Of a stretch of 54,901 nucleotides of DNA, positions 6,904 through 42,807 are shown in pieces. Source of the stretch: Gammaproteobacteria bacterium (GTDB lineage Bacteria; Pseudomonadota; Gammaproteobacteria; Eutrophobiales; Eutrophobiaceae); assembly GCA_047517145.1 (NCBI GenBank), contig JAKZTI010000074.1, forward strand, positions 1 to 54,901, in the 5' to 3' direction. A model generated the notes under the pieces. That model did no database searches, was not told the DNA's origin, and saw only the letters and a list, made by a program, of their open reading frames with translations. Position 1 is the first letter of the stretch. Each line of letters begins with the position of its first letter. The position numbers and the translations under genes were made by a program.

Positions 6904-6908
6904 TAACA

Positions 6909-8345
6909 CTAATCCTCTTGTATACGAACAACTCCAAGGCGTTCGTGTCCAGAATGTATGGCCTTGTAAACCTGTTCCGGTGCGGTACCACCCTGATGAG
7001 CACGCGCCGCAACTGATCCTTCCAGACTCAGGAAATCAAAGACATCATCATCTATGACTTGACTGAATTGCTTTAATTCATCCAGCGTTAATTCAGATAA
7101 ATCCTTGCCTGCTTCAATTGCATATTGCACGGACTGTCCAACCATCGCATGTGCATCCCGGAAAGTAATATCTTTGCGTACCAGATAATCTACCAAATCA
7201 GTCGCCGTGGTAAAGCCCTGCATGGCTGCTTCGCGCATGCGTTCCTTGTTCACCACTATTTCAGGCACCAAACCTGCGTAAGCATGTAAACAGTCTTTGA
7301 CGGTATCTATCACATCAAACAAAGACTCCTTGTCTTCCTGATTGTCCCGGTTATAGGCCAGTGGTTGGGCTTTCATCAAGGTCAACAAGCCCATCAAATG
7401 TCCATACACCCGTGCAGTTTTGCCGCGAACCAATTCTGGAATATCCGGATTTTTTTTCTGCGGCATAATCGAAGATCCCGTACACCAGGCATCGCCCAGA
7501 TCAATAAAACCAATTTGCTGCGACATCCATAACACCAGTTCTTCCGAGAAACGAGACAAATGCATCATGATCAAGGCGGAACAACTGCTGAACTCGATGG
7601 CAAAATCCCGATCACTGACAGCATCCAGGGAATTATTCGTTACTGCAGGAAATTTTAATAATTCAGCCGTGTACTGCCGATCAATCGGGTAGCTGGTACC
7701 TGCCAGCGCAGCGGATCCCAGTGGCATAACATTAATACGCACATGACAATCAGCCAGACGCAGACAATCCCGGTAAAGCATTTCAAACCAGGCCATCATG
7801 TGGTGACCAAATGTTACGGGTTGTGCCGTTTGCATATGTGTAAAACCGGGCATGATTGTTTCGGCCTCGCGTTCGGCCAGATCCAGTAAAGCTGACATGA
7901 CATTAACCAGCAAGTCCTGAATCTCAGCCACTTCATCACGCAAATAGAGACGAATATCTGTAGCGATCTGATCATTCCGTGAGCGCCCGGTATGCAGTTT
8001 TTTTCCAACATCACCAACACGGGTGACCAGCGCGGTTTCAATATTCATGTGCACATCTTCCAGCGTGCCCTGCCACTCGAAGTCTCCCTGATCGATCTCT
8101 GCTTCGATCGATTGTAGTCCTTCAATAATTTGTTCAGATTCCTGCCGCGAAAGCACACCGACCTTGGCCAACATGCTGACATGCGCCACTGATCCCATAA
8201 TGTCATAATGGTAAAGACGTTGGTCGTAAGAAACAGACTGTGTGAACTGTTCAACAAAGGCATCAGTGGATACAGAAAAACGTCCCCCCCATGGCTTATC
8301 TTGCTTAGACTTATCTTGTTTGGTTTTATCGGTTTTATTTGTCAT
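6909..8345 (-). CDS. argH: Argininosuccinate lyase
   Basis: [17 protein letters not shown]..., the fumarate-lyase signature region [12 protein letters not shown], and 478 aa including a 17-aa K/D/Q-rich N-terminal extension. Confidence 0.95.
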
Positions 8346-15529: not shown

Positions 15530-16249
15530 TCAAGCACTCACACAAGTAAGATACGCCTGTTCCAGATCCTTGGCTTTATACGTGCTTGTACATTCCTCTA
15601 TAGTGCCGATAAACGGAATGCATCCTTCATGAAGAATTGCGACACGATCACACAAGACCTCAATATCTGCCAGCATATGGGTACTGAAGAAAATTGTCTT
15701 ACCGGCCTGTTTCAGTTCGATCAGGTGTTGTTTTAAAAAGGCCCTGGCTTTTGGATCCAGACCACTCATGGGTTCATCAAGCACCATCAAATCTTTCTCA
15801 CTCATCAGACAGGCTGCCAGGCCCAGTTTCTGCGCCATACCTTTTGAAAAATCCCTGACGGGTTTCGATAGTGCTAATATGTCCAGATCAAGAATTGCAA
15901 ATAGATCTGTAGCCTTATAACTACTGTATTCAATCCCATGAAGTTCAGCCATATACACCAGAAAGTCCTTCCCTGTGAGGTAATAAGGGGGCATAAATCT
16001 TTCCGGAAGAAACACCAGATTTTGTCTTGCTTCTTTCTTTGTGTGAGCAGTACCGAATATTTCAATGTTACCAGATGTTACATCACAGAAATCCAGCAGG
16101 CACTTAATCAGCGTTGTTTTACCCGCGCCATTGACACCAATTAAACCAGTAAACTCACCTGCACTGACAGTCAAATCAATCTCATCCAAAACCCGGGTAT
16201 CGGCAAAGGATTTACAGAGTTTTCTAATGTTGATTACTGAATCAGTCAT
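15530..16249 (-). CDS. ABC transporter ATP-binding protein (ABC-2 type)
   Basis: Walker A GVNGAGKTT, signature SKGMAQKL, Walker B LMVLDEP and an H-loop (FFSTH). Confidence 0.9.
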   Translation of the reverse strand: MTDSVINIRKLCKSFADTRVLDEIDLTVSAGEFTGLIGVNGAGKTTLIKCLLDFCDVTSGNIEIFGTAHTKKEARQNLVFLPERFMPPYYLTGKDFLVYMAELHGIEYSSYKATDLFAILDLDILALSKPVRDFSKGMAQKLGLAACLMSEKDLMVLDEPMSGLDPKARAFLKQHLIELKQAGKTIFFSTHMLADIEVLCDRVAILHEGCIPFIGTIEECTSTYKAKDLEQAYLTCVSA

Positions 16250-16402: not shown

Positions 16403-17176
16403 TTAGTAAACGAACACCTGCCCACAATCCTGAGAGTCATCAAAGACATCATAGATATCTGTTAACGCATTAGTGCCAGCTGCATTTGCCGGAGCAACCA
16501 CCCCCGCTGTTGTCGTACAATTAGCAAATTGTGGTATGAAATTTATTGGGTCGAAGACAACAGTTGTACCTGTGGCACCGGCACCATCAGCTATGGTTAA
16601 ACGTACCACACCAGAATTAGGCAGACCATCGTCCACCTTAAGATCCAGTTCCCGCGCAACATTAACCGGGACGTTCCGGCCCATGTGCAGATTTAGACGC
16701 ACTGAACGTACTCCCGAATACCCTGCATTTCGAGTCAATATTAAAGGGCCATTAAAGGCGTTGACTGGCCCAGCCAGAAGTGTTGCATAAAATGTCTCAG
16801 TTGTAGGATCGGCGATTGCCGGTGTAAAACCACCCGATATAAATTGGGAAGCGGCTAGTTGTGTCCATAATGCTGAGGCTTCTAAAGTCGTATTATCAAT
16901 ACGTCCGTTGCCATTGCCTCCAATGAGCTGAGCAACTGCTATACCCAGTGCCGGTGATGCATTTGCTGCAGACCAGTCACCCGGGACCTGACGATAGCGA
17001 TCGATAAAGCCGAAGTAAGCCGCTTGAATGCCGGAGTTCTGATCCGCAAGGTTTCTTACTCTTGCACTATTAATGAGTTCCTGGCCCTTTAAAATACCAC
17101 CCAGTAAAAGGCCAATAATCACCAATACAATTGCGATTTCTACGAGTGTGAAACCCGCCTGTTTTCTGTTGTTCAT
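16403..17176 (-). CDS. Type IV (MSHA/T2SS-like) major pilin precursor, unusually long at 258 aa
   Basis: MNNRKQAG|FTLVEIAIVLVIIGLLLGG is a class III signal peptide with Gly-1, Phe+1 and Glu+5. A C-terminal Cys-Cys pair (CTTTAG...DSQDC) resembles a pilin D-region. The gene has its own sigma54 promoter and terminator. ATG at 17176 was chosen because the longer ORF (to 17260) would run across the promoter. Confidence 0.85.
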   Translation of the reverse strand: MNNRKQAGFTLVEIAIVLVIIGLLLGGILKGQELINSARVRNLADQNSGIQAAYFGFIDRYRQVPGDWSAANASPALGIAVAQLIGGNGNGRIDNTTLEASALWTQLAASQFISGGFTPAIADPTTETFYATLLAGPVNAFNGPLILTRNAGYSGVRSVRLNLHMGRNVPVNVARELDLKVDDGLPNSGVVRLTIADGAGATGTTVVFDPINFIPQFANCTTTAGVVAPANAAGTNALTDIYDVFDDSQDCGQVFVY

Positions 17177-17230
17177 CTCTATTGTTCTCACTTTACACTC
17201 CTCTTTCATCCAGTATTTGCTTATAAGTAC

Positions 17231-17246
17231 AGCAAATGTCATGCCA
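17231..17246 (-). promoter_or_regulatory. Sigma54 (-24/-12) promoter of the pilin gene
   Basis: The minus strand reads TGGCATGACATTTGCT, against the consensus TGGCAC-N5-TTGCW with exact GG/GC spacing. It lies 55-70 nt upstream of the pilin ATG. Confidence 0.75.
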
Positions 17247-17284
17247 TATTTATAACTCATTGATTTATTTAGTTTTATATCTGC

Positions 17285-17388: not shown

Positions 17389-18129
17389 CTATTTGTCTTT
17401 ATCATTTTCACGTTCTAGTCTATCGAGCCGATCAAGTAGAAATTTAAGCTCATGGGCATCTGTGATTGCACCACTTTCCAGTAAACCGCCAATCAATACT
17501 TTTGCACTTTCTATTTCGCCCATATCCTCCAGAACATATATTTCCATTTGCTTTACCCAGGGAGGGATATCTTTCACGGTTACCTGTTGGGCAACTGCAT
17601 GCGCATATTCTAATGCCAGTGGATAATCTTTAAGCCTGTGCTTGGCAACATAAATCGCATGAATCATGGACGGCCAGCGCCGATCTGGATCTTCGGAAAA
17701 TTTTTCAGAAATAAACTCCAGCATTTGACGTTTTTTTTCATCGTCTGTAACAACACCATAAACACGACCCGCAGCCAGTAGCGGATACTGGCCTTTGGGA
17801 TCCAGCGTTAAAATTCTTTCCAGCCAGTTGATGACCCGTTGATAATCGAGATTTTTAAATGGCACACTGACCCCTGGTTGATTATCAAACGCCTGTAACC
17901 AGAGCATAAATAATTTCGAAATCGCAATAGAATCTCCCAGACCCATCAATTGCGACTCTATTTTCGAAGGCGGCTCAGGCAGTGACTTGATATTTATCGT
18001 TGCCAGCGCACCTGAACTTGACCAATAAATTTGAAAAAGAAAAGCAACAATTAAAGTAATGATGATAACTGCAGGAACATCTTTTACTGAACGTTCATCT
18101 GATCTGTTGAGTAAACGCCAAAAATTCAT
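17389..18129 (-). CDS. Membrane-anchored helical-repeat (TPR-like) protein of unknown function
   Basis: 246 aa with a single N-terminal TM (VPAVIIITLIVAFLFQIYW) and an all-helical remainder. I recognise no family. It lies between the pilin gene and the ABC-2 permease gene. Confidence 0.5.
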   Translation of the reverse strand: MNFWRLLNRSDERSVKDVPAVIIITLIVAFLFQIYWSSSGALATINIKSLPEPPSKIESQLMGLGDSIAISKLFMLWLQAFDNQPGVSVPFKNLDYQRVINWLERILTLDPKGQYPLLAAGRVYGVVTDDEKKRQMLEFISEKFSEDPDRRWPSMIHAIYVAKHRLKDYPLALEYAHAVAQQVTVKDIPPWVKQMEIYVLEDMGEIESAKVLIGGLLESGAITDAHELKFLLDRLDRLERENDKDK

Positions 18130-18311: not shown

Positions 18312-19088
18312 TTAAAAATTCTTTCTGTTTAAATCAAAACATGCTGCAGCGAATAGCAAGACAACATAGATAATCGTCTGTCCGGCAACAAACATATATT
18401 CACTGCCACCACCTCCACCATAGACCAACCATTCCGTTTTGCTAAATTGATCAAGTTCGGGGAGCAAGGTTGCTATGATATCGACAACCACATTAATTAT
18501 TTTATGAGAGATTGCTGCCGTTCCCAGAATAGGACTATCGCCCATCAACTGGATGGTACTGATCGTCCGTGCCAGTAAATAGAATGCCACAACTGAAGAA
18601 AATGCTGTGGTAACATTTTTAAATGTGATAAGGCATAACAAGGATAAGGCCGTGAGAATCCATAGTTCACAAATCAAAGAAAAACACCATAAGATCAGCT
18701 GTGAAGTAGTATCGATTAAAGCCAACGGAATGCAGACGATTATGGCAATAAACACAGCCAATAGACAAAAACCGAGCATCTTTCCAGCAAGATATGAATA
18801 TCTATCCACTGGAAGAGAAATAATTAATTCAAGTCCCTTGTCATTAAATTCCCTTATTGTGCTTGTGATCACAAAGATGCAAGTGATAAACACAGCAAAA
18901 AGTCGCAGAATCATCCCTGTTATCGCACTTTGAATTTGCGTAGTTTCAGTAACTGCCAGCTCACCAATGAACTGCGTTAATCCGAACAGGCATACGACAC
19001 CTACCAACACCACTGTAAACAGACGGTTCTTGATACTCTCTATTAGAGTAAACCTGGCAATCGTTAATATGGGCTGTATCGTTGTCAT
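18312..19088 (-). CDS. ABC-2 family transporter permease
   Basis: About 258 aa with six predicted TM segments in a NosY/ABC-2-like layout. The likely partner ATPase is at 15530-16249. The ORF opens at TTG 19106; the first ATG is at 19088. Confidence 0.6.
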   Translation of the reverse strand: MTTIQPILTIARFTLIESIKNRLFTVVLVGVVCLFGLTQFIGELAVTETTQIQSAITGMILRLFAVFITCIFVITSTIREFNDKGLELIISLPVDRYSYLAGKMLGFCLLAVFIAIIVCIPLALIDTTSQLILWCFSLICELWILTALSLLCLITFKNVTTAFSSVVAFYLLARTISTIQLMGDSPILGTAAISHKIINVVVDIIATLLPELDQFSKTEWLVYGGGGGSEYMFVAGQTIIYVVLLFAAACFDLNRKNF

Positions 19089-19172
19089 ACTGTATTCTGT
19101 TTGCAATCCATGAGTACTATACTATAGCGCAGTTAATTGAATGGCTTCCTGCATAAAACTTTATTCCAGATA

Positions 19173-20846
19173 ATGATAATGTTACCCAAAATAGTGAAAA
19201 CAAGACAAGAAGAGCTGGTTCTTCTGACAATGCTGGAGACGTTCCATTTCGCGATATGGTACGAAATCGGGAACTATGTAAGCCAGTCACTATTACTCAT
19301 TCATTTTGGTATGTTCCTGATCTGGCAACCAATCCTGAAAGAAAATCAGGATATCACATGGGCCAAAAGCCTCCTGTTTATTGCTTTTACACTGATCCTG
19401 GTTTACTGGGTCAACTGGATTTCGATAACACTGTGGCTGGTGCTGCTCATCGGATTTGTCGGTGGCCGTGTCACCACCAGACGTCATGAACGAAATGTGT
19501 ATATGTTCGTGATGGCATTCCTGATCTTTGAATTACTGATTTCTGTTGTCCCACAGATGTTTAGCCTGTCGCTAAACAAAACTATTTATAATGCGTATCT
19601 AATTGGAATGCCGTTTATACCCCTAATATTACTGATAACACCAAACACTTTTACTAGGAAACGCGATGAAACTGTCGATATCCTGCTTGCCACAACGATC
19701 TCATTTATGGCAGTTATTCTGGCGCTCGGTAGTCTGGTCTTGATGTACCACAATAATACCGATTACATTATCTCTCTGATTCAAACGTTGCTTGCTGTTG
19801 GTATTCTTTTGATTTCTATCAGCTGGCTTTTGTCTCCCCATAGTGGTTTTAGCGGTCTCTCTCAATTATGGACCACATCTTTATTAAATATTGGAACACC
19901 ATTTGAACAATGGCTTGCTAAGCTTTCCAGGCAAAGACAAGCACAACAATCCCCGGCAGATTTCCTGGACACAGCAATGAGGGAACTGGTTTCACTACCA
20001 TGGATAGCAGGAGCCACATGGACAGGAGGCTCAACACATGGAATTTATGGTGAATTAACAAGGCATGAAATACATCTGGATATTAGTGATCAACCACTTA
20101 CTTTATTTACACATGTCGCCCCCGCAGGTGTTATGTCTTTACATTGTAACTTGCTGGTTCAGTTAATAGAGACATTTTACACCGCAAAGAAACAGGAACG
20201 GGAGCTATCACAACAGGCCCACTTACATGCTATCTATGAAACAGGCGCCAGGGTTACCCATGATATAAAAAATTTACTGCAGTCGTTACAGACAATGACA
20301 ACACTGCTTGACACAACTTCTGATGAAACGAAGGAAAAATCTATCGTACTATTAAAAAAGCAACTGCCTCATATTAGTCAACGATTACAGCTCGCACTAA
20401 ATAAATTGCAGGCACCAGAACAGAAATCAACAAAAAACATCCTGGCAACGATCTGGTGGAAAGAAATATCGACCCGCAGGGAAGACTCACAAATTAATTT
20501 CCAGAGTGTCATAGATAAAGATACTCTGATCCCGGAAGAATTATTCAATAGTGTCATTGAAAACCTGCTTGAAAATGCAATTCAAAAAAGACAGGTTGAT
20601 CCAGATATTGTAATCAGCGTCACCCTGAAAATTGAATCAAGCTCAATTGTACTCGCTGTCACTGATACGGGTCATGCCGTTAACGAGACAATTACAAAAT
20701 CTATATTAAAAGAACATGTCACATCAGATAATGGACATGGTATTGGGCTTTATCAGGCAGCTAAACAGGCTGAATCATTAAACTATATTTTACGGCTTAC
20801 AGAGAATCGCGATGGCAATGTCAGCTTTGAACTATCCAGGAAATAA
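19173..20846 (+). CDS. Polytopic sensor histidine kinase (PilS/PrsK-like architecture)
   Basis: About 250 aa of TM helices, an H-box ARVTHDIKNLLQSL and a HATPase_c domain (LLENAIQK...DTGHAV...GHGIGLY). The ORF opens at TTG 19137, with ATGs at 19173 and 19179. Confidence 0.8.
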   Translation: MIMLPKIVKTRQEELVLLTMLETFHFAIWYEIGNYVSQSLLLIHFGMFLIWQPILKENQDITWAKSLLFIAFTLILVYWVNWISITLWLVLLIGFVGGRVTTRRHERNVYMFVMAFLIFELLISVVPQMFSLSLNKTIYNAYLIGMPFIPLILLITPNTFTRKRDETVDILLATTISFMAVILALGSLVLMYHNNTDYIISLIQTLLAVGILLISISWLLSPHSGFSGLSQLWTTSLLNIGTPFEQWLAKLSRQRQAQQSPADFLDTAMRELVSLPWIAGATWTGGSTHGIYGELTRHEIHLDISDQPLTLFTHVAPAGVMSLHCNLLVQLIETFYTAKKQERELSQQAHLHAIYETGARVTHDIKNLLQSLQTMTTLLDTTSDETKEKSIVLLKKQLPHISQRLQLALNKLQAPEQKSTKNILATIWWKEISTRREDSQINFQSVIDKDTLIPEELFNSVIENLLENAIQKRQVDPDIVISVTLKIESSSIVLAVTDTGHAVNETITKSILKEHVTSDNGHGIGLYQAAKQAESLNYILRLTENRDGNVSFELSRK

Positions 20847-20858
20847 TAAAAGATACCC

Positions 20859-21620
20859 TTAAGGAAGTATTCCCGCCTTAACAGTCATAGTCCTCATGAT
20901 ATGCGGAGATATCCAGATCAGCAAATCATCAAATTCAGCACCTGCTGTTGCGCTATAATCCTTTTCTACAAAAATAAGATCGCCATTGGTATTCTCAGTT
21001 TCATCCGGTGAGGCTGCAGTCGACCAGTTTATTCCATGAGAAACCACAACAGCAGGTATATTGATTGCAACGGTATTCCCGGCTACAGCAGCATCATTAA
21101 TGATTATCTCTCCATCTGAACAAAGTGAAAAAGAGACATTCAGCGTAGCCGAAGCTGTTTCACAACCCGTTCCATCAGTTGTCGCATTACCTCTGTCTGC
21201 GAAGGTATCATCAACACGATAAGTAAAGTTGTTACTCCACTGATCTGCGCCTTTTACCCCCAGCGTGCCCCAGGGTAAATTTCCTGTTTCAGTAGCACAT
21301 GTAAGTCCACCACCAGCGGCAACAGTATCTTCTACTCCATCATTAATATCTAATGGATCGGCTGCATTGACAGCTATACAATTAGCATTCCAAGTGCTCG
21401 TGGGACAATCCGGACAAGGAAGATAATTATTCTGTAATACATGTCCGTAAAGAATTGCCTCTATATTGTCGAGCTGGAGTTGTGTGTTGTTTCGTTCCTC
21501 TTGCTCAACACGCGAAGCTAGTGGCTCCAGAAAGCTGGTCATCAATAGAGCCAGGATGAAAAGAACCATTGTTATCTCTATCAGGGTGAAACCTTGTTGT
21601 GCAGAATATTTCATTTTCAT
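20859..21620 (-). CDS. Minor pilin / pseudopilin with a canonical prepilin N-terminus
   Basis: MKMKYSAQQG|FTLIEITMVLFILALL. It shares LPCPD and G.LPW.TLG motifs with the giant upstream protein, and its ATG lies 8 nt after that gene's stop. Confidence 0.8.
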   Translation of the reverse strand: MKMKYSAQQGFTLIEITMVLFILALLMTSFLEPLASRVEQEERNNTQLQLDNIEAILYGHVLQNNYLPCPDCPTSTWNANCIAVNAADPLDINDGVEDTVAAGGGLTCATETGNLPWGTLGVKGADQWSNNFTYRVDDTFADRGNATTDGTGCETASATLNVSFSLCSDGEIIINDAAVAGNTVAINIPAVVVSHGINWSTAASPDETENTNGDLIFVEKDYSATAGAEFDDLLIWISPHIMRTMTVKAGILP

Positions 21621-21628
21621 ATCGTTAA

Positions 21629-22504
21629 TCAGGGTGATGTATCCAGAACACGGACCTGATCGTTAAATGTACCCATTATTTCGCCAATTTGGAATCCATC
21701 ATCTCCGGCATTATTGTTCCCATTTTCATAGTAATCGCTGATACTGCCTGAAGTCCTGTCCTGAGTTGGCAGTGGGTTTGCAAGGGGCTCACCGGCACTG
21801 ATCACAATTGCCCGTTTGTTATCGTCTGGAGATCCCCCGCCAGTAAGCGTAAGGCAATCAGTACTCACAGTACATATCGCGCCGCCATTTGGACTATCCC
21901 CGGCACTATAGGCAATATAAATCAGCTGGTGCCACTTGTTTGTGAGAAGCCAGGAAGGGAAGTCGCCATTATTCTCCCACAAATAATAATCAACATTACT
22001 CAGGCGAATACTTCCGTTACTTGCTGCACTAGGCGTAAATGTGGCCCGGCCAACTTCAGTTGTTTCATCTTCTTCATAATCACGTAATGTCATTAATGGT
22101 GTGCCACCATTTCCAGAAAAATTAACTGCTGCTGTAGCGCTACAGTCTGCGTTGTATCCCATGCAGACATCTCTTACGCGTTTTTCTGAGACAGTATTGG
22201 TTGCCTGATTGCCCCTATATTTTGCATGAAAGATATGCTCGCGCGAAAAAACATAATCATGGTAGACCGTATAGGTATTACCAACCGCAAAATCATTTGG
22301 GGCCCCGTTGTACAATGTTGTTTGTATCCCTGTTCCAACTACTGCTGTAATTTCACCAACTGCACCAATGGAAGTATTTACAACAATATCCCCAACGCTG
22401 ATACCTTCTGCTAAAAAATTTGCTGATGCGTCTCTAAATCTGTCCGGTGTGCCCGTTGATAAAACACTGGTAACCGTGCCGCTATATGAATTAGCAGCAG
22501 GCAT
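21629..22504 (-). CDS. C-terminal portion of the giant pilin-like repeat protein (annotated ORF)
   Basis: There is no signal peptide or RBS of its own. The same frame stays open upstream to 22729 and keeps encoding the repeat motif (PIEFRVGDSYTIF, PDFDTAEYYRI), so this ORF continues 22597-24795 after a 1-nt frameshift. Confidence 0.7.
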   Translation of the reverse strand: MPAANSYSGTVTSVLSTGTPDRFRDASANFLAEGISVGDIVVNTSIGAVGEITAVVGTGIQTTLYNGAPNDFAVGNTYTVYHDYVFSREHIFHAKYRGNQATNTVSEKRVRDVCMGYNADCSATAAVNFSGNGGTPLMTLRDYEEDETTEVGRATFTPSAASNGSIRLSNVDYYLWENNGDFPSWLLTNKWHQLIYIAYSAGDSPNGGAICTVSTDCLTLTGGGSPDDNKRAIVISAGEPLANPLPTQDRTSGSISDYYENGNNNAGDDGFQIGEIMGTFNDQVRVLDTSP

Positions 22505-22596
22505 AATGCGATAATATTCAGCAGTATCAAAATCAGGGGCAATCGCTGAAGTATAATTAACAGTGCTTAATTGTGTTTCGCTAGAGACGCTTGTAA

Positions 22597-24795
22597 CTAC
22601 TGCTTTAAATGGTTGGAATATTGTATAACTATCACCAACCCTGAATTCAATCGGAGTAGCGGCTCCCCTACATAACTCACTGCTTCCAGTGTATCCGCGT
22701 CGATAATATTGGCTACTACGCCTTGTATCCTACTAACGCCTAGATCTATTTCCAGAGTATTGTTCTGAATCACATAGCTATAGGGTTCATATACACTGAA
22801 ATCTACAGCTGCATCAACTAAAGTGGTACCTGTACTTCCAACATCGGCCGTACCTGATATAACGGATGTTTCGTCATCGTAATCTTGCGCTATATCGCCA
22901 CGTTTAATTCCATTGGTATTAAATTCGGCAGTAGTGTCGGTGATGACTACCGTATTAGTCCCCGATGTTATTGTGCCAGATATATTGACAAAATCTTTAA
23001 AGCTGCCATAACAGTCCGCTGTATCTGCCAGCAACCAGATGCATGTACCATTTGAATTAGCAAAGGATTGTGTTCCACCATCTTCCGCATAGGAATCCAG
23101 ATAGGTCTCAACGGCCGTACTGTAGGTAGCCTGTACACCCGGAAATGTGACTGCATCAAAACTGATATCGGCAGCTGCGGCGGTAACAAAATCCCAGTCA
23201 ATATCAAAGGCTGTTGGAAAATGTTTCCCTACCTCATGAAAGGCAAGCAAGCCTTCACGCGCATTATTATCTGCAGTGTTGCGAGGCAAAAAATAATAAT
23301 CGTTAACTTCGAAAGAATTGTCTGATCCAAAATAGAGTGCATCAACGGTTAAAACGTTTACTGCAACAGCAGAAACCCTGCCAAAAGAACCATCAGTAAG
23401 ATTGATAATCAGATCACCAGCCTGAACGTCCATAACTACAAAATTGTTATTGGCATCTTCCAGGGTCAAGCTATTCGTTCCTGCTGCGGCCTGGCCATGT
23501 TGGCTACGAATTCTATAATTTTCACCATTGTCAAAATCATTTTCAGCACCACCACTGAGTGTCAGGGTATTGGGTAATGTTAAAAATGTTAGTTCATTTG
23601 CAGAGACTGTATCCACCACGCCACTGGAACCGTCGGTAAGATTATCAACAATATCACCGGGGCTGATGTCCAATTCGGAAAAATTATTTGCAGCGTCCTC
23701 CAAGGATGCGTTGTTATTGGCGTTTGTTGCAACCCCTCTTAATTGACCTAAACCAGCCAGTGCAGCTGGATAAATATAGTACTCATCATTATTATCAAAA
23801 TCGTTTCCTGTACCCAGGCTCATTCCCCCGCCGATAGTCAAGGTTGTTGCAGCCACTGCCGTTACTGTACCGACTGAGCCATCTGTAAGGTTCCTTACAA
23901 CATCACCGATAGCAACGCCCCATACGCTAAAATCTCTGGTTGAATCAGTCAAGGTTGCAGCACCATTACCACCATCATGTTCACCACTTAGTGCGAATTT
24001 TGATGCCTTGGGATCTGCAAAAGGGGCCAACCATGGATAAGCCCCGTGTGTATTAAAATAGGTAGTTAAAATCTGACCAACTTCCCCAAGCACACGTTTC
24101 TCTACAGCCTGCATTAATTCCTGCCGAGTGATGACGACGAGTCTGTCATTAAAATCACCATTCGCAGTTGTTACAAATGATGTATCCAGATTACTATTAT
24201 CATCTTCCAGATAATTTGTTACATCATTAACAGCAGCAACTCTATCCTGATTATCAAAGGGTTCACCGGGGGCAAAAATAATGGCAACAATATCAGCCGT
24301 GCCATTTATAGAGAGCTCGGCACTTGAAGGTGATTCGCTATTCAGCGGAATTGTTTTGTTATTCCCAAAACGGAAATTCTCAGAGAGTGCATACCAAAGC
24401 CTCTGACCGCTGGCATCCCTCAGTTCTTCCAGCCTGAGAGTCTGGTTTGGTAATCTACCTATTGTAGTGTTCCCGGCGAGCGAACAATTGGCGGCGGCAC
24501 TGCCATCATTATTAAGGTCAGGGCACGGCAAATAGCCCGGACCATCAACCACCCCACTGACATCATGATCCGGGAATGTTATTGCGTAACCAATCAGGGC
24601 GTTCCTGGCAGCATTCAAAGCAATGCCTGTCTCCTGAGAATGTTGGGTTTTAGCCAGATTGGTGTTTAATTTTCTTGCGAGATAGTAGGATGAAGCAATA
24701 ATGATAAGTAGTGTAAATGCCAACAGGACAGCCCCTGCTTGGCCTTTGGGAAAGGTGCAACGATGATTACCGTGGTGGTGATTATTAATAGCCAT
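22597..24795 (-). CDS. N-terminal portion (732 aa) of a giant pilin-anchored repeat protein (in the position of MshQ/GspK-like tip proteins)
   Basis: Non-canonical pseudopilin-like N-terminus PKGQAGAVLLAFTLLIIIASS, then a GYLPCPD / RLPNQTL module. Tandem 65-70-aa repeats follow, carrying GD(I/V)(I/V).NLTDGS.G.V..V....LT ... NDFDN.(D/E).Y.I. Confidence 0.7.
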   Translation of the reverse strand: MAINNHHHGNHRCTFPKGQAGAVLLAFTLLIIIASSYYLARKLNTNLAKTQHSQETGIALNAARNALIGYAITFPDHDVSGVVDGPGYLPCPDLNNDGSAAANCSLAGNTTIGRLPNQTLRLEELRDASGQRLWYALSENFRFGNNKTIPLNSESPSSAELSINGTADIVAIIFAPGEPFDNQDRVAAVNDVTNYLEDDNSNLDTSFVTTANGDFNDRLVVITRQELMQAVEKRVLGEVGQILTTYFNTHGAYPWLAPFADPKASKFALSGEHDGGNGAATLTDSTRDFSVWGVAIGDVVRNLTDGSVGTVTAVAATTLTIGGGMSLGTGNDFDNNDEYYIYPAALAGLGQLRGVATNANNNASLEDAANNFSELDISPGDIVDNLTDGSSGVVDTVSANELTFLTLPNTLTLSGGAENDFDNGENYRIRSQHGQAAAGTNSLTLEDANNNFVVMDVQAGDLIINLTDGSFGRVSAVAVNVLTVDALYFGSDNSFEVNDYYFLPRNTADNNAREGLLAFHEVGKHFPTAFDIDWDFVTAAAADISFDAVTFPGVQATYSTAVETYLDSYAEDGGTQSFANSNGTCIWLLADTADCYGSFKDFVNISGTITSGTNTVVITDTTAEFNTNGIKRGDIAQDYDDETSVISGTADVGSTGTTLVDAAVDFSVYEPYSYVIQNNTLEIDLGVSRIQGVVANIIDADTLEAVSYVGEPLLRLNSGLVIVIQYSNHLKQ

Positions 24796-26102: not shown

Positions 26103-27714
26103 CTTTCACCCCCAATACCACTCTTACAGAGAAATTGGATTTACCTGCACTTTCCCTTGCAGAACCCTGCAAGCTTGCATCCGAACCGATGTCCAGCGGC
26201 AAGCTAACAACACTGACATCATGCACTGAATCCAGCTGCCTTATAGACTCAGAAAATCGATCGATCGTATCAAGCACTTTCCTGTAGTCACCATCAAAAT
26301 CATCGATGTAGGCATTAAAAATTGCAATCTGGTAATAGATATAAGCTGTTTCAGTATCGCTAATATTGCTTAAGCCAAGCATGGCCTGATCCCTGTCATC
26401 AATAACACTACCAGGATTTCCACCACCAACATTAAGGTTTGGATTTGTATTTGCTGCCCACTGTATCTGGCTGATTTGTATCTCGGGAAATACTTCCAGA
26501 CCTTTACTGATTACCTTGAACATATCAACAGGATCAGCTTTATGTGTATTCAGAATTTTCTTTGACTCAACAACGGTTGTCAGATCAGCGGGTTCAACAG
26601 GTAAAGCAGATATTCTTTCCCGTGCAACTTCATACCTGACGGTATAAAAATCTGCTTTCTTTGCATCAGCTCTATATTGTTGCCTGTAGGTAAAACCTTC
26701 AAGTACATTCAAACCTCCCCAAATAATGCCTGAAATCATGAATATAAAACTGGCGACCCGAAGTGACGTGTTTATCTGCCGCATCTGAAAATAACGCGTC
26801 TCTTTACTCACCGCGTAATAATTTTTGCACTTATGCTTCAATAGTTGATAAGTAAAATACTTATCACTGAAAGGTGTCTTTATCTGTTCAACGAAACCAC
26901 ATTTATTGGCCAGCTCACCAGTGTCAAAAAAATGGTAGCGAATCATCGCAGAATTGATATGTGTCTTGCCTAATTCAGCCAATAGCTCCTGATCACCAAA
27001 AAAGTAAATATCCAGAGGCTTGTCTTTATCAATAAAATGCGCACTATCGATATAACGCCTGACCTTTACCAGTTCCTCCGTCAGCATAGGTACGTAGGAT
27101 TCTGTACCATAACGTGGGACTTTTACCAGGCGACTAAACTTAACTAACTTGTCCCGGAAAAAAGATTGACGCAAACCACTGATACTTTGCAAACAGAAGA
27201 CAAGTGTATTACCAGCCATGTCGGGGATAATATATTTGCTTTCCTGCAGTAGTAATGGAACTGATATCACCCCTGCGACTGGAATTTTATGCTGTTCCAG
27301 TATTTTCAGCCAGGGTTGAATCACCTCCGGGTTAGTAATTGCAGAAAGCATGATAATGTCATCGCGCCGGCCTGATTTTTCTCTTCCCTGAAAATCTGTA
27401 TGCAGATATGGTGTCCCTCGAAAAGCGCGGTCCTGCTTTCTTTCTATGAGTGCCCGTCGATCTGCCCCGAAGACATGAGGTATTGTATCCAGTCGATATT
27501 CTTCTGCAGCCGTATCCAGCAACACATAAACGGGATCTTTCTGAACTTCGCTCAGGTAACGGCCAAAAAATTCAAAACCTTCTGCTGATGCATCAAATAG
27601 GTATGAACTACCGAGGTTATCATTTGCCCAGTGATAAACGGCCAGCTTGTCTACGCCAATAAGTAATGCTCTTCTTGTAGAAGATTTAAATTTTGATTTT
27701 AGTGATGAGATCAT
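26092..27714 (-). CDS. MshI-like fused PilM/PilN-type assembly protein
   Basis: 540 aa: a cytoplasmic domain of about 315 aa, one TM (LRVASFIFMISGIIWGGLNVL) and a periplasmic domain of about 200 aa. It follows the platform gene directly. This architecture matches MshI. Confidence 0.45.
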   Translation of the reverse strand: MISSLKSKFKSSTRRALLIGVDKLAVYHWANDNLGSSYLFDASAEGFEFFGRYLSEVQKDPVYVLLDTAAEEYRLDTIPHVFGADRRALIERKQDRAFRGTPYLHTDFQGREKSGRRDDIIMLSAITNPEVIQPWLKILEQHKIPVAGVISVPLLLQESKYIIPDMAGNTLVFCLQSISGLRQSFFRDKLVKFSRLVKVPRYGTESYVPMLTEELVKVRRYIDSAHFIDKDKPLDIYFFGDQELLAELGKTHINSAMIRYHFFDTGELANKCGFVEQIKTPFSDKYFTYQLLKHKCKNYYAVSKETRYFQMRQINTSLRVASFIFMISGIIWGGLNVLEGFTYRQQYRADAKKADFYTVRYEVARERISALPVEPADLTTVVESKKILNTHKADPVDMFKVISKGLEVFPEIQISQIQWAANTNPNLNVGGGNPGSVIDDRDQAMLGLSNISDTETAYIYYQIAIFNAYIDDFDGDYRKVLDTIDRFSESIRQLDSVHDVSVVSLPLDIGSDASLQGSARESAGKSNFSVRVVLGVKDDA

Positions 27715-28891
27715 ATATTGGACCTAGAACAGAAAACATAACCCAGGCAATAATTCCTCCAAGAATCACAGTCATTCCCGGTTCGATCATTGTTTGTAAA
27801 CGCTCAATCGATTCTTTCACATCTCGGGTATAAAAATAGTTAATATTCTGTAGTGCAACCTCCAGCGCACCAGTGCTTTCACCCACACGTAACATCCTTA
27901 GCACTAATGGCGGAAACAATTTGGCAGATTCAAAACTACTACTTAATGTTGCGCCATCAGAAATATTGACACCGACCTGATGCACTGCTTCCTCCATCGC
28001 CTTGTTCCCAACAATCTGTTCACCTGTCTCGATGCAATCAAGAATAGTGATACCTGACGCATACATTATGGCAAAAAAGCCCGCGAGTCGCGCCAATATT
28101 ATTTTTCTGAGTATCGGTCCCACTAATGGAATCTTGAGCTTAAGTAAATCTACCTGATAATGAATCTTCGGATTGGTTTTTACACCAATAGATATTCCTA
28201 TTGCGATAATTGCCGGTATTCCAGCTATCAGGTACCAATAATTAACAAATATATTCGAGACAAAAATGAGTGCCTTGGTGTGGCCAGGAACCTCCTGTCC
28301 CATGTTGCGAATAAAGCTTAATAATTCCGGAACCAGATAAATCATCAGAAAAAATATTACCCCGATGACAACACTTCCAACAAAGAGTGGATACATAAGC
28401 AGCTTTCTGGTCATTGCTGCCTGCTCATCCTGCCATTTAAGGTTCTCTTCTAATTCAAAAAATATCTTGCTGATTTCACCAGATTCTTCGCCTGCCTTAA
28501 CCAGGCTAGAAAACACTTTGGAAAAAACCTTGGGATAGTCACTCATGGCAGCAGATAGTGTTTTACCACCTTCAATCGATTCATACATTGCTGATAGAAT
28601 TTCCCGCATTCTTGGATTTTCGGCACTATCCCTGAGATCTTCCAGACTCTCCAGGATTGGCACACCAGCCTTTGATGTTTGTTCCAGATGAAAACAAAAA
28701 GTAATCAGATCTCTTCTCTTGATGCCACTAGCACTGCCTCTTGGCCCTGTTGCACCTAAATCCTTGCACTTAACAAGATCAAGATCCATCTTCTGCAGCC
28801 GCATTTCCAGATCAGCAATATTTGCCGCATCCATCTTGCCAGCGTTGACTCTACCTGCACCATCAACTGCTTTGTATTTAAAGACATTCAT
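27686..28891 (-). CDS. GspF/PilC/MshG-family inner-membrane platform protein
   Basis: 401 aa with two T2SSF-type repeats, three TM segments and conserved ...MLRVGESTGAL... Confidence 0.9.
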   Translation of the reverse strand: MNVFKYKAVDGAGRVNAGKMDAANIADLEMRLQKMDLDLVKCKDLGATGPRGSASGIKRRDLITFCFHLEQTSKAGVPILESLEDLRDSAENPRMREILSAMYESIEGGKTLSAAMSDYPKVFSKVFSSLVKAGEESGEISKIFFELEENLKWQDEQAAMTRKLLMYPLFVGSVVIGVIFFLMIYLVPELLSFIRNMGQEVPGHTKALIFVSNIFVNYWYLIAGIPAIIAIGISIGVKTNPKIHYQVDLLKLKIPLVGPILRKIILARLAGFFAIMYASGITILDCIETGEQIVGNKAMEEAVHQVGVNISDGATLSSSFESAKLFPPLVLRMLRVGESTGALEVALQNINYFYTRDVKESIERLQTMIEPGMTVILGGIIAWVMFSVLGPIYDLITKIKI

Positions 28892-28898
28892 GAATTCA

Positions 28899-30614
28899 TC
28901 AAGACTGTTTTAATCTTATGGAAAGATCTACCACTCTGGAAATTTCTTCAAGACTGGAAGAACCATCAAGAACACGGTCAGTCCCGACTTCGATTAATGG
29001 TTTAAAGCCCTTGGACAAAGCAGTTCGTAGTAAATCACTTTGACTGCCCTTCTTGGCAAGTACTTCATCCATCTCATTATCAAATGTCAAAATCTCTACC
29101 AGGGCCAACCGCCCTTTATAGCCCATATTATCGCAGGCCTGACAGCCTTTCGCTTTATAGATTGACTGTTCTCTATCAGTGGCTTTCAACCCGAGTAAGT
29201 TTCTTTCCAGACTTCCCAAGACATAGGATTCGCGGCATTTCTCACATAATTTTCTCGCCAGACGTTGGGCAACAATGCCTATCAAATTGCCAGCAAGAAT
29301 TTCCGCTTTTACACCAATATCTAATAGTCTTGGAATGGCGCCTATTGCAGAATTTGTATGCAGCGTTGAAAAAACCTGATAACCAGTCATTGCCGCACGT
29401 AATGCCATACTTGCCGTATCTTCATCACGTATTTCACCCACCAGAGTAATATCCGGATCCTGACGCATCAGAGATCGAATCCCGCTGGCAAAATCAAGTC
29501 TGGCTGTTTCGCTGATTGATGTTTGGCGTATCAGGTTGGTTGGATATTCCACCGGGTCTTCAAGCGTCATAATGTTTACTGACTCGGTATTAAGATAATT
29601 CAATATCGAATAGAGTGTTGTTGTCTTACCACTACCGGTAGGGCCAGTCACCAGGATGATCCCTTCAGGTCTTGCTACCATTAATCTTAAAGCCTCCATG
29701 GCATCTTCTCGTAGCCCCAGCTCATCCAGACCAACAATCCCCTTCTGCCTGTCAAGGATACGTAATACGATATTTTCACCATGAACTGTTGGTAACGTCG
29801 ATACGCGAAAATCAACCTGCCGTCCTGAAAAAGTCAGGGAAATGCGACCATCTTGCGGAGCACGAACTTCTGCGATATCCATACCAGCCATAACCTTCAC
29901 TCGAACAGCAATTGCTGACCAATAGCTCTTGTGTAAACTGCGGATTTGTCTCAGCACGCCATCAATGCGATAGCGAAACCTGAGAAACCCTTCCTCTGGT
30001 TCAAAATGTAAATCTGAAGCACCACGTTTTACTGCATCCGTTAATAAAGCATTCACCAGACGTACCACAGGCTGACTATATTCATCACTAGCTGTGTCCA
30101 TACTTTGATAATCAATTTCGCCTGTCTCGATTTCATTTAAAATGCCATCAACAGATAGTTCGAATCCGTAAAACACGTCAATGGCTTTTTCTATTTCAGC
30201 TTCGCCGGCAAGTAATGGCATAATTTCAATATCTTGCCCAACATGAACGCTTATTTTATCTGTTAAAACAACGTTAAACGGATCTGTCATTGCAATGGTC
30301 AACTGATTGGTATTACGTTCAAAAGTGAGTGGCAATATGCGCAGTTGCCGTGCCATATCTTTCGAGATCAAATTGATTGCATCACTATCTGGAATAGCAC
30401 GATCGAGATCGACACTTTCCTGGCCAATCGCACCACCAATGACATCACGAATGATTGCTTCTGTTGCAAACCCAAGGCGCACCAGAATTTTCCCTATCAG
30501 ATCACCGCTACTTTTTTGCTCAGTTAGTGCAATATCTATCTGATCGGAAGTTGTAACCCCCTGTTTGACGAGGATCTCGCCTATACGAAGCGCTTTCTTA
30601 TGTGTGCCAGTCAC
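28899..30614 (-). CDS. GspE/PilB/MshE-family assembly ATPase with an N-terminal MshEN domain
   Basis: Walker A GPTGSGKTT, Asp/His boxes, a tetracysteine motif (CEKC...CQAC) and an N-terminal RIGEILVKQGVTTSDQIDIALTEQ-KSSGD-LIGKILVRLGFATEAIIRDVI. The GTG start overlaps the upstream stop by 1 nt. Confidence 0.9.
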   Translation of the reverse strand: MTGTHKKALRIGEILVKQGVTTSDQIDIALTEQKSSGDLIGKILVRLGFATEAIIRDVIGGAIGQESVDLDRAIPDSDAINLISKDMARQLRILPLTFERNTNQLTIAMTDPFNVVLTDKISVHVGQDIEIMPLLAGEAEIEKAIDVFYGFELSVDGILNEIETGEIDYQSMDTASDEYSQPVVRLVNALLTDAVKRGASDLHFEPEEGFLRFRYRIDGVLRQIRSLHKSYWSAIAVRVKVMAGMDIAEVRAPQDGRISLTFSGRQVDFRVSTLPTVHGENIVLRILDRQKGIVGLDELGLREDAMEALRLMVARPEGIILVTGPTGSGKTTTLYSILNYLNTESVNIMTLEDPVEYPTNLIRQTSISETARLDFASGIRSLMRQDPDITLVGEIRDEDTASMALRAAMTGYQVFSTLHTNSAIGAIPRLLDIGVKAEILAGNLIGIVAQRLARKLCEKCRESYVLGSLERNLLGLKATDREQSIYKAKGCQACDNMGYKGRLALVEILTFDNEMDEVLAKKGSQSDLLRTALSKGFKPLIEVGTDRVLDGSSSLEEISRVVDLSIRLKQS

Positions 30615-32365
30615 TACTGCAAATCGGCCTGATTTGACAATGTGTTGATGCGGGAAATAACCACGGCGCTGTCAAAACTTACTGCAGAATTATCTGCCAG
30701 ATCCAGTGCTACATTATAATAATCAATAGCTGATTTCTTTTGACCAACATGCTCAAGGCTGACAGCCAGATTAAAGGCATAATCAGCATTTGAAGATTCT
30801 ATTCTGTGCGCATCAAAAAATGATTGTTGCGCCTCAGGCCAGCGGGTCTGTGCAGCATAAAGACGAGCCAGGGAATAATGTAGAAAAGAATTATCAGGCT
30901 CACTCTGCAGAAAAGTCTTAAGGATACTTTCACTTCTTGAATGGTCTCGATTGTCCTTAAAGTTTATTAGTGCTGCTTCTGCAACAATATCCCCGGGATA
31001 TAATCTTAGGACTTCAAGATAATTGATATAGGCCTGGCGAACATCGCCTCTATGTAATGATACCGCTGCCAGTCCCAGTAACGCATCACGATTTTCAGGT
31101 AAATTATTTAAAACAATAAGATAATTTTTTTCAGCAGAGTCAAAATTACCTGCGAGATATCCCTCATAGGCTTTGTTTACTAACACACTGCTCTTATCAA
31201 CTGATTTACTACGACTGATTTTAATTAATTCTGGTTCAGGTGTTATTTTTTCTGGCAAGGACAAGGCAAGCTCTTCAACAAGCTCATCTCTGGTAGCATT
31301 TTCTTCAAAAGAAATATCGTCTGACGGATACCAGATTTTTTCCTCGGCCTCATCTGCTGCACTAACAGAAGCCTCTGTTATCACCTCTTGCACAGGTTCA
31401 TTGATAGCAACACTTTCATCTGCAGGTGTTTCCTGGCCTTCAACAACGGTGACATTCTCTTTCTCAATGACATCGGTAATCTCACCTGTAAACAACCTGC
31501 TATCAACCTCTGCAGCAAATACTAAATCTTCTGGTATCTCAATTGCTGGCACTGGCTCGGATTGTGTTTCAATATCCCTGGCAACTAATGGGGATTTAAT
31601 CGATCGTTCAACTGGAACAGTGTAGTTAAACACAAAGAAAGACAAGGAAACTGCAATAACAAGACACAGAATGGCAAAGACACCCCATTGAAAGATCTGG
31701 TTGCTAGTGCTTCTGGAAGTTGCCGTAAACACCGTCTGTGCAGCAACCGGAGTCGGGCTATCAGCACCTATGTCCTCTGCTAATTGCGCAACAGAAACTG
31801 TTGAACTGAAATATTCATCTGCAGCATCTGATATAGTCTCAGAATAAATTGGCTGCTCTGCCTGAACCGTATCCTCTGCATCGCCCGTTGAGGTTTCAAC
31901 AGTTTCATCCTGCACTGATGTGCCTTCAGAGACAGTAATTTCACCGATTTCCAGTTCCAGTTCTGGCTTATCGGCCATTGCAAGCTGCTCTTTTTCCTCA
32001 ACAGATGATGAATCTGTTGTTGACGTCTCGGCGTGTGACAGATCCTGTCTTGATGGATCATCACTTTCCTTGCTTTCAGCAATTGGCTGCTGGTCTGTAT
32101 TGGGCGAAAGTGATAAATCTTCCAGCTGGCTGGTAATATCCAGCTCATCCTGATTTTCGACAGGCGGTACCAGCTCTTCATCGTTCTGATCAAGATCAAT
32201 TGAATGATCTTCCATGCTCAATTCTTGTATAGCCACATCGTCAGCCTGACTATCTTGCTGAGACAATTTATCCTGGGGCAAGTTGTCTTGCGCTTCTTTT
32301 AGACGTTTTGCCGCCGCTTTTTTATCCTGTTCCGCCTTTTTCAAGGCGTCCATCAACAGGCTCAT
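30614..32365 (-). CDS. TPR-repeat protein (MshN-like) with a long acidic N-terminal region and one TM
   Basis: Residues 25-205 are D/E/S/T-rich. The TM is IFQWGVFAILCLVIAVSLSFFVF. The C-terminal ~200 aa carry several TPR-like repeats (AYEGYLAGNFDSAEKNY..., ALLGLAAVSLHRGD...). Confidence 0.6.
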   Translation of the reverse strand: MSLLMDALKKAEQDKKAAAKRLKEAQDNLPQDKLSQQDSQADDVAIQELSMEDHSIDLDQNDEELVPPVENQDELDITSQLEDLSLSPNTDQQPIAESKESDDPSRQDLSHAETSTTDSSSVEEKEQLAMADKPELELEIGEITVSEGTSVQDETVETSTGDAEDTVQAEQPIYSETISDAADEYFSSTVSVAQLAEDIGADSPTPVAAQTVFTATSRSTSNQIFQWGVFAILCLVIAVSLSFFVFNYTVPVERSIKSPLVARDIETQSEPVPAIEIPEDLVFAAEVDSRLFTGEITDVIEKENVTVVEGQETPADESVAINEPVQEVITEASVSAADEAEEKIWYPSDDISFEENATRDELVEELALSLPEKITPEPELIKISRSKSVDKSSVLVNKAYEGYLAGNFDSAEKNYLIVLNNLPENRDALLGLAAVSLHRGDVRQAYINYLEVLRLYPGDIVAEAALINFKDNRDHSRSESILKTFLQSEPDNSFLHYSLARLYAAQTRWPEAQQSFFDAHRIESSNADYAFNLAVSLEHVGQKKSAIDYYNVALDLADNSAVSFDSAVVISRINTLSNQADLQ

Positions 32366-35583: not shown

Positions 35584-35586
35584 TAG

Positions 35587-37092: not shown

Positions 37093-37161
37093 GCTTGACC
37101 CCTTTTGAGCAAGCCTGTACGCCCAGAACAAGCACGTTTTTATCTTTCTCTTTCGGTCTGA

Positions 37162-42048: not shown

Positions 42049-42056
42049 GATTGCTA

Positions 42057-42782: not shown

Positions 42783-42807
42783 GAGAATTTCTCCTTGTGT
42801 TTATTTA

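Follow-up and report, generated by a model that had tools for sequence, protein, structure and literature searches.

A giant pilin-like protein with an unnamed β-barrel repeat is a candidate filament-tip subunit in uncultured Gammaproteobacteria

We examined a stretch of 54,901 nucleotides (the window) from an uncultured, marine-type gammaproteobacterium that GTDB places in the Eutrophobiaceae (contig JAKZTI010000074.1 of assembly GCA_047517145.1), where the minus strand encodes a pilin-like protein of 1,055 amino acids (aa), hereafter the giant pilin. Its N-terminal pilin module is followed by ~780 residues that include six domains of one repeat family, predicted to be β-barrels, and then by a highly conserved C-terminal stretch in which the final strands of the pilin fold recur. 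The reading we lean towards is that the protein is a modular minor pilin of the tip-capping class of PilK, GspK and CpaL, and that it belongs to a type IV filament machine resembling the mannose-sensitive haemagglutinin (MSH) system in uncultured Gammaproteobacteria. An earlier reading of the window from its letters alone (the sequence-only reading) had pointed out both the repeats and the pilin-like ends.

The gene is interrupted in the window by a one-nucleotide deletion, and residue numbers refer to the protein with the missing base restored. The parts of the gene are as follows, with bit scores from a hidden Markov model (HMM) of the repeat family.

21629..24795, minus strand: gene of the giant pilin-like protein, 1,055 aa, stop codon included; given as two open reading frames (ORFs) in the mechanical list
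22597-24795, minus strand: ORF of 732 aa, the 5′ part of the gene
21629-22504, minus strand: ORF of 291 aa, the 3′ part of the gene
24565..24795, minus strand: residues 1-77, leader with a class-III-like signal (KGQAG↓AVLLAF...) and long α1 helix (helix 20-77 in the AlphaFold2 model)
24127..24564, minus strand: residues 78-223, globular pilin head of the N-module, with GYLPCPD and invariant Cys91/Cys104, ending in FNDRLVVIT
23980..24126, minus strand: residues 224-272, second helix (224-250) and linker AYPWLxPFADPKA, with near-invariant P254, W255, P262 and K263
23767..23979, minus strand: predicted barrel B1, residues 273-343, core 280-343; 87 bits; five strands and a lead-in strand in the AlphaFold2 model
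23503..23742, minus strand: predicted barrel B2, residues 352-431; 80 bits
23281..23502, minus strand: predicted barrel B3, residues 432-505; 83 bits
22984..23280, minus strand: non-repeat 'mid' module, residues 506-604; one helix; invariant Cys585/Cys595
22843..22983, minus strand: B4a, first half of the split B4, residues 605-651; HMM positions 3-28
22613..22842, minus strand: B5, divergent and nested in B4, residues 652-728; holds the frameshift site
22662..22663, minus strand: site of the 1-nucleotide deletion, GAG[A]CCGCT, codon 712, within B5; breaks the frame in the window
22499..22612, minus strand: B4b, second half of the split B4, residues 729-766; HMM positions 30-61
22259..22483, minus strand: predicted barrel B6, residues 772-846; 70 bits; the fourth example quoted by the sequence-only reading
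21632..22258, minus strand: C-terminal module, residues 847-1055; Cys878/885 invariant, Cys975/981 near-invariant; the end of the pilin fold recurs in its last ~60 residues

As in prepilins, a short leader ending in Gly precedes a hydrophobic stretch (KGQAG↓AVLLAFTLLIIIASSYYL in the window, the arrow marking the cleavage site). Across the family the conserved leader reads [KR][KR]-Q-x-G↓A-A-L-L-A-F, with Gly at −1 in 78 of 78 sequences aligned there and Q or E at −3. We take this Q-x-G↓A-x-L N-terminus to be a PilX/GspK-like motif. Position +5 is A, I, L or V and never Glu in the 88 sequences aligned at that column. By analogy, the missing Glu5 argues for a subclass, that of the apical subunit, which is expected to lack it (PMC10191384), and not against a pilin nature.

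The pilin fold itself is predicted by AlphaFold2, with an α1 helix of 58 residues followed by a β-sheet head to residue 223. Residues 8-222 align with the family profile of the 253-aa pilin encoded directly downstream (pilin253) over 193 columns (hhalign 99.7%, E 1.6e-25), and this resemblance had already been noticed from the letters. Because the alignment reaches the last strand, the N-module is a complete pilin module. The description of the protein as pilin-anchored is thus supported by homology of its N-module to a neighbour that matches the N_methyl model, by the long predicted α1 helix and by the conserved leader ending in Gly.

At the other end, homology links the last ~60 residues (RAIVISAGEP...FNDQVRVL) with the stretch that closes the N-module (AIIFAPGEP...FNDRLVVI), with BLAST E of 8e-5 and hhalign of 96.6% (E 6.7e-10), in agreement with what the sequence-only reading said of the C-terminus. 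This stretch is among the best-conserved parts of the protein, where D1046 is invariant and N1045 near-invariant. In hhalign comparisons, the mid module does not resemble the pilin modules. The protein has four pairs of conserved Cys (91/104, 585/595, 878/885 and 975/981), which fits an extracytoplasmic location.

The repeat cores run on the minus strand from 23958 (residue 280) to 22259 (residue 846), so that the interval 22250-23964 assigned to them earlier was accurate. An HMM built from the four quoted examples recovered all four as canonical copies at residues 280-343, 363-431, 443-505 and 785-846, along with weaker stretches at 618-638, 658-727 and 753-765. The core comprises 63 positions with a start-to-start period of ~80 residues, and a conserved lead-in, 'sGTAt', stands ahead of each core. 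The best-conserved positions are L3, D5 (98%), F10 (95%), G18-D19, N23 (89%), T25-D26-G27-S28, G30, F53 (91%), D57 and Y59 (97%). The repeat pattern originally written for the family is right overall, except that F and GD are spaced by 7 residues, not 6.

In pairwise local alignments, the canonical copies score z = 11-22, and not one shuffle in 1000 scores as high as the real sequences. The divergent copy at 652-728 gives z of ~3 in the same comparison (5-15 of 1000 shuffles), and scores 7.1 bits with the four-seed HMM (independent E-value 3e-4) and 37 bits with the family HMM. The remaining two stretches, residues 614-645 and 733-766, correspond to HMM positions 3-28 and 30-61. When the two are joined, they give a full-length alignment of 46 bits (E 6.6e-15), compared with a maximum of 10.5 bits in 500 shuffles. 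Repeat statistics are thus far better than for shuffled sequence.

The seven HMM stretches therefore resolve, as judged from these alignments, into six domains, namely B1, B2, B3, a split B4, B5 nested within B4, and B6, rather than the 'seven or eight' copies counted earlier, since the two partial copies together make up one repeat. We also considered the two partial repeats as decayed copies and rejected this, as the joined halves fit one split repeat with a nested insertion. The split-and-nested pattern (a half, one or two whole copies, a half) recurs by strict criteria in 38 of the 120 homologues listed, and members of the giant-pilin family have between 4 and 9 copies. B3 scores 73-84 bits in 10 of 10 members inspected. 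Tandem Repeats Finder detected no tandem repeat at the DNA level, so the duplications are old, and recent duplication or recombination of the repeats was rejected on this ground. A Ca2+-binding motif in N-x-T-D-G-S, suggested by the many conserved Asp and Asn residues, was set aside as speculation because of its mismatch to the DxDxDG pattern.

Structure was predicted by AlphaFold2 for the intact relative P0001 with 90 homologues. The whole-protein model has a mean predicted local distance difference test (pLDDT) value of 89.8 and a predicted template modelling (pTM) score of 0.83. In order, it shows disordered residues 1-19, a helix at 20-77, a β-rich head to 223, a second helix at 224-250, and thereafter the all-β repeat units (five strands and a lead-in each), the one-helix mid module and a β-rich C-terminal module. 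A Foldseek search of a three-repeat model against the PDB returned nothing at E ≤ 1e-3 (best E 7e-3). The best single-domain matches in the PDB were the N-terminal β-barrel of the F1-ATPase α/β subunits (72-75 residues, root-mean-square deviation (rmsd) 3.0-3.5 Å, probability ~1, E 0.03-0.1) and barrels of riboflavin synthase and lumazine protein. The model thus predicts a small β-barrel whose resemblance to the F1-ATPase barrel is merely at the fold level. A Foldseek search of the whole 1,055-aa model against the PDB was discarded as low-scoring multi-domain noise (TM score 0.04-0.07).

The same three-repeat model gave 20 matches at E ≤ 1e-3 (best E 8.7e-9) in BFVD, which holds predicted viral structures. 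These include a cyanophage tail sheath, a baseplate J-like protein and tail fibres, and one match has 49% identity over 72 columns with an rmsd of 1.7 Å.

Searches by sequence found no named family for the repeat, consistent with the sequence-only reading. Pfam-A 2025 and NCBIfam 20.0 gave nothing at E ≤ 1 against the 1,055-aa protein except one noise match, and PHROGs v4 matched neither the whole protein nor the consensus repeat unit. A 63-position repeat profile made from 97 diverse units reached at best E 0.9 among PDB sequences, and the full-length profile matched none of them. Together with the shuffle statistics, these searches exclude both a chance repeat and a known domain, the two outcomes that would have refuted the sequence-only reading.

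When the repeat profile was run against 1.84 billion cluster representatives, it matched 3,468 proteins at E ≤ 1e-3, 646 at E ≤ 1e-10 and 124 at E ≤ 1e-30, each representing a cluster at 50% identity. The top 150 matches comprise 97 members of the giant-pilin family and 53 proteins of other architectures. Among the latter, a 2,915-aa protein (P0146; E 1.4e-67) carries Pfam Phage-tail_3 and matches the PHROG 'central tail fiber J'. A 1,035-aa tail sheath protein from a phage-like contig (P0187, locus L082 6803-9910; Phage_sheath_1; E 1.1e-44) has six repeats in its N-terminal half (residues 241-643), ahead of the match to the sheath model, and a tail fibre or spike N-terminus (P0245) matches with E 4.5e-27. 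These three carry 3-6 copies each. Further carriers contain Big_5, fn3, SpaA-type or HYDIN/VesB-like Ig domains or a β-helix, several with lipoprotein-like N-termini. The source names of the non-pilin carriers are uninformative, with one 'putative Ig domain-containing protein' and otherwise nothing, and the giant-pilin homologues are named 'hypothetical protein' or, once, with a generic PulG pseudopilin label.

On these profile matches, the predicted barrel domain is unnamed but widespread, is not peculiar to the giant pilin, and has its other homes in exposed structures, that is, phage tails and surface proteins. The proposal of a surface-display or tip-adhesin domain fits this distribution and the pilin module lacking Glu5, with adhesion itself being what we infer.

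The giant pilin is encoded within a filament gene cluster, the members of which are listed below.

34117-35583, minus strand: AAA_22 ATPase
32366-33982, minus strand: MshL-like secretin; best match TIGR02519 pilus_MshL, 242.3 bits, just below the 250.2 cutoff
30614-32365, minus strand: TPR protein
28899-30614, minus strand: MshE/PilB-type ATPase with an MshEN domain, which binds cyclic di-GMP (c-di-GMP); PF05157, 46.5 bits (cutoff 23.1); NF053729, 52.5 bits (cutoff 38)
27686-28891, minus strand: GspF/PilC-type platform protein; best NCBIfam match GspF, 283 bits
24844-27714, minus strand: three proteins of 540, 207 and 212 aa between the platform protein and the giant pilin, in conserved order
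20859..21620, minus strand: pilin253, 253 aa, with a G↓FTLIE signal; Pfam N_methyl E 3.9e-6, TIGR02532; paralogue of the giant N-module, directly downstream of the giant gene in related loci that are long enough
19137-20846, plus strand: divergent histidine kinase downstream of pilin253, present in many related loci
18312-19106, minus strand: ABC-2 permease, conserved distal part of the cluster
17389-18129, minus strand: 246-aa protein without assignment, conserved distal part
16403-17260, minus strand: second prepilin-type protein, 285 aa, conserved distal part
15530-16249, minus strand: ABC ATPase, conserved distal part

Conservation of the cluster was examined in a collection with one genome per species, in which 290 stretches encode a relative of the giant pilin. 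Of the 290, 80 were listed and fetched together with L001, the corresponding locus of a sister assembly. Those 80 are metagenome-assembled genomes, nearly all labelled Gammaproteobacteria, some Thiotrichaceae or Chromatiales, and a few otherwise. Wherever the contig is long enough, the gene order is nearly invariant, from secretin through TPR protein, MshE-like ATPase, GspF, the three unassigned proteins and the giant gene to pilin253, and the ABC/pilin tail of the cluster is present in most of the fetched loci. Co-occurrence with the pilus gene set, which the sequence-only reading had put forward as a check, is thus observed.

The 540-, 207- and 212-aa proteins have no Pfam or NCBIfam match, MshI/J/K-type models included, and no sequence relative of the 540-aa protein was found in the PDB. 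By position, they should be inner-membrane assembly parts of the PilM/N/O/P or MshI/J/K type. The 285-aa ORF has a 28-residue extension ahead of MNNRKQAG↓FTLVEI, and its true start is probably an internal ATG near 17176, which would give 257 aa. Its N-terminus resembles the major pilins MshA, PilE and PilA in weak PDB matches, and the protein may be the major subunit.

ABC exporter genes inside a type IV filament cluster are unusual. A few kb upstream of the filament ATPase, at 39913-45009 on the minus strand, are genes for a REC-PAS-GGDEF-EAL protein, a double-REC protein and a PAS/GAF histidine kinase. The MshEN ATPase and the nearby GGDEF-EAL gene hint at c-di-GMP control of filament assembly. 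The AAA_22 ATPase and a sigma-54 response regulator upstream on the same strand as the giant gene (34117-37131, minus strand), as well as the histidine kinase at 19137-20846 on the plus strand, match XrtA/PEP-CTERM models below their cutoffs (pepcterm_ATPase 205 bits, PEP_resp_reg 336 bits and PrsK 44 bits), suggesting a distant regulatory kinship with exopolysaccharide/PEP-CTERM systems. Elsewhere in the window, a 1,305-aa AsmA-family protein (2992-6909, minus strand) lies among housekeeping genes (argininosuccinate lyase, a MutY-like glycosylase and GshA), and the remaining genes, among them those of glycolysis and the S-adenosylmethionine cycle, are of an ordinary chromosomal kind.

We infer that the giant pilin could act in four steps. 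A prepilin peptidase would process it, and it would then enter the filament as the first subunit and remain at the tip, since a pilin without Glu5 and with a bulky head of ~100 kDa would fit only there. The barrel array would be presented outward as a ligand- or surface-binding, that is, adhesive head. Finally, the conserved C-terminal strand would lock the body onto a pilin β-sheet, either its own or that of an adjacent pilin253. The last step is modelled on the 'β-strand addition' that licenses PilK/PilY1, GspK and CpaL. PilK-type caps require a terminal β-strand, which comes in trans from PilY1/PilC (and is predicted to do so from MshQ) and in cis in GspK and CpaL. In CpaL, ComZ and other proteins of the PilK type, a large insertion separates the sheet from the donor strand at the C-terminus (PMC13533445). 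Because the layout of the giant pilin matches that of a PilK-type cap with its terminal strand, we propose an apical subunit with a binding head of six barrels.

Pilins may carry grafted adhesive modules and then fit at the tip only, and many more such modular pilins have been predicted, with modules lacking database signatures (Raynaud et al. 2021; PMC8179133). The modular pilins of Streptococcus sanguinis, PilB with a vWA module and PilC with a lectin module, share with the giant pilin an N-terminal pilin module and grafted modules that are not specific to pili, and their bulky heads were likewise argued to fit only at the tip (PMC8179133). The barrel too occurs outside type IV filaments, in tail fibre J, sheath, spike and Big_5/SpaA/Ig proteins. 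The giant pilin differs from these modular pilins in its extra part of ~830 residues (six barrels, the mid module and the C-terminal partial pilin duplicate) and in its host, a diderm with a secretin. At 1,055 aa it is also longer than the 860-aa 'most extreme case' of the PMC8179133 survey. That survey was built on IPR012902 and would probably have missed it, since its N-terminus fails IPR012902/PF07963, and the same would probably hold for other signature-based surveys.

The apical pilins PilK, PilX, GspK and MshP likewise lack Glu5 after the Gly cleavage site, and their genes lie together with those of other pilins next to the machinery. GspK, like the giant pilin, has a large extra domain, but this is an α-domain of ~180 residues inserted mid-sheet (PMC13533445), whereas the giant pilin carries an all-β array after a complete pilin module. 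Partners of the PilI/PilJ type were not recognised by models in the giant-pilin locus, which has only the 253-aa paralogue and the 285-aa pilin. CpaL/TadG of Tad pili and ComZ of Thermus (Ellison et al. 2026; PMC13533445) come close in layout, with an N-terminal domain like a minor pilin, a body of several hundred residues and a conserved strand at the extreme C-terminus; the counterparts in the giant pilin are FNDRLVVI in the N-module and FNDQVRVL at the C-terminus. The body of CpaL and ComZ has an adhesin role. However, it is a vWA domain in CpaL and a β-solenoid in ComZ, not an array of barrels, and no sequence similarity was found; the CpaL machine is Tad, whereas that of the giant pilin is MSH- or T2SS-like (T2SS, type II secretion system).

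PilY1/PilC and MshQ, the presumed tip adhesins of type IVa pili and MSHA, are similar to the giant pilin in size (~1,000-1,200 aa), in gene position after the assembly genes and by the minor pilins, and in presumed role. They have no pilin module and need a separate PilK or MshP, whereas the giant pilin has its own and shows no PilY1 β-propeller or MshQ-type Pfam match. By analogy, it seems to combine the parts of PilK and an adhesin in a single chain. The likeness of the repeat to the F1/V1-ATPase barrel and to riboflavin synthase and lumazine protein is at the fold level only, with no sequence similarity and an unrelated biological context. The phage tail carriers (including BFVD A0A6J7X8S1 and A0A516L4L6) have the same repeat by both sequence profile and predicted fold, without a pilin module, and no function has been described for the domain there either.

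Several observations weigh against a tip-capping adhesive pilin. Pfam PF07963 (N_methyl) and TIGR02532 miss the N-terminus of the giant pilin at E ≤ 1, although its 253-aa and 285-aa neighbours match, and the PilX_N, T2SSK, PilY1 and MshQ-type models of Pfam and NCBIfam give no match in the protein at this threshold. The window contains no prepilin peptidase gene. The three-repeat model has a pLDDT of 82.6 but a pTM of only 0.58; the analysis identified neither a ligand nor a metal site or binding pocket, and the barrels in phage tails may be structural or decorative instead of adhesive. All family members are from uncultured organisms, and a frameshift breaks the window's copy of the gene.

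A rather unlikely alternative is that the giant pilin caps, as GspK does, a short pseudopilus in the periplasm, within a secretion or export machine of T2SS-like type, where the barrels would contact cargo or gate the secretin and the ABC-2 transporter would serve the same process. The cluster lacks a retraction ATPase, the two canonical pilins have weak GspG/GspH-type matches at their N-termini, GspF is the top NCBIfam match of the platform protein, and conservation of the cluster extends to its genes for an ABC-2 permease and an ABC ATPase; moreover, GspK also combines a missing Glu5 with a large inserted domain (PMC8179133, PMC13533445). On the other hand, no GspC, GspL or GspM was matched, the secretin is closest to MshL, the ATPase scores slightly higher as PilB (517 bits) than as GspE (507 bits) and carries MshEN, and the barrel is otherwise found on exposed structures. 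Because all equivalog scores are below cutoff, the assignment to the MSH or T2SS type is not firm. It is quite unlikely, in our estimate, that the barrels are inert spacers or decoration and that the protein merely primes assembly, as PilK and PilY1 do together, with no specific ligand bound. Such a role would agree with the orthologous conservation of each repeat position (as B3 illustrates), with the absence of homogenisation of the repeats at the DNA level, with a whole-protein model that is compact rather than beads on a string, and with the C-terminal strand and the pilin module being the most conserved parts. The variable copy number speaks against it, as does recurrence of the domain with adhesin-type modules (Big_5, SpaA, Ig-like and tail fibres), and ~500 barrel residues kept across the family of 290 matching stretches argue for a function beyond priming. 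The middle region of CpaL, too, was modelled as dispensable for stability of the tip complex, yet it holds the adhesin domain (PMC13533445).

The frameshift brings in a further rival, that the window gene is a dead pseudogene, with nothing functional encoded here in this strain, or that the break is an assembly error, which as an explanation of the locus we hold to be very unlikely. Three-frame translation places the shift near 22665 on the minus strand, and one added base gives 1,055 aa. The deletion at 22662/22663 splits the ORF outside any long homopolymer, and the truncated product would lack the conserved C-terminal module; if real, the deletion would remove this module and should inactivate the protein. 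P0001, also of 1,055 aa, is intact on a contig 99.8% identical to the window at the DNA level, and the window protein, once the missing A is inserted, is free of stops and differs from P0001 at 4 residues. The proposal of a single gene, cut into two ORFs by a frameshift, was thus correct. Over 23 kb, the window and L001 are 99.86% identical, with 31 mismatches and 2 gaps. One gap is the deletion, where the sister assembly is intact, but the other splits the TPR gene of L001 (321 + 256 aa), which is intact in the window (583 aa). A single indel in each of the two assemblies over this length suggests assembly noise, not biology, and we consider an assembly error as likely as a true pseudogene for this deletion. 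A programmed −1 slip on a GGGG run, which would restore the frame, was rejected as the simplest reading, since the 99.8% identical relative has the extra base and an intact ORF and the 120 listed full-length homologues (925-1,209 aa) are uninterrupted. Conclusions at the family level hold either way.

The modular, tip-type minor pilin, to which we would assign the giant pilin, is a kind already known. New are the giant-pilin protein family, the unnamed barrel shared with phage tails, the nested-repeat architecture, and the combination of a cap, an adhesin-like body and a pilin-fold duplicate in one chain within a conserved, unstudied cluster. Current understanding is not overturned; rather, a gap is filled. 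The idea of the modular pilin is extended to a 1,055-aa example from a diderm, and the giant pilin offers a natural single-chain test case for licensing of filament tips by β-strand addition. The barrel, for which there is no Pfam, NCBIfam or annotated PHROG model, is a family worth naming that connects large surface proteins with phage tails and pilus tips, and the alignments made here would allow its direct entry into domain databases.

The analysis also flags a highly conserved, uncharacterised filament cluster in a broad group of uncultured Gammaproteobacteria. Its ~15 genes encode the AAA_22 ATPase, secretin, TPR protein, MshEN-ATPase, GspF, three unannotated proteins, giant pilin, pilin253, histidine kinase, ABC-2 transporter and second pilin. 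We tentatively entertain the possibility that the cluster is a distinct, undescribed branch of type IV filaments, with cap, adhesin and licensing strand in one chain, and that its adhesive unit is an unnamed barrel family moving between phage tails and bacterial surface organelles. If this is true, phages and the pili of these uncultured Gammaproteobacteria would share the module as a means of holding on to one class of ligand, environmental or on cell surfaces.

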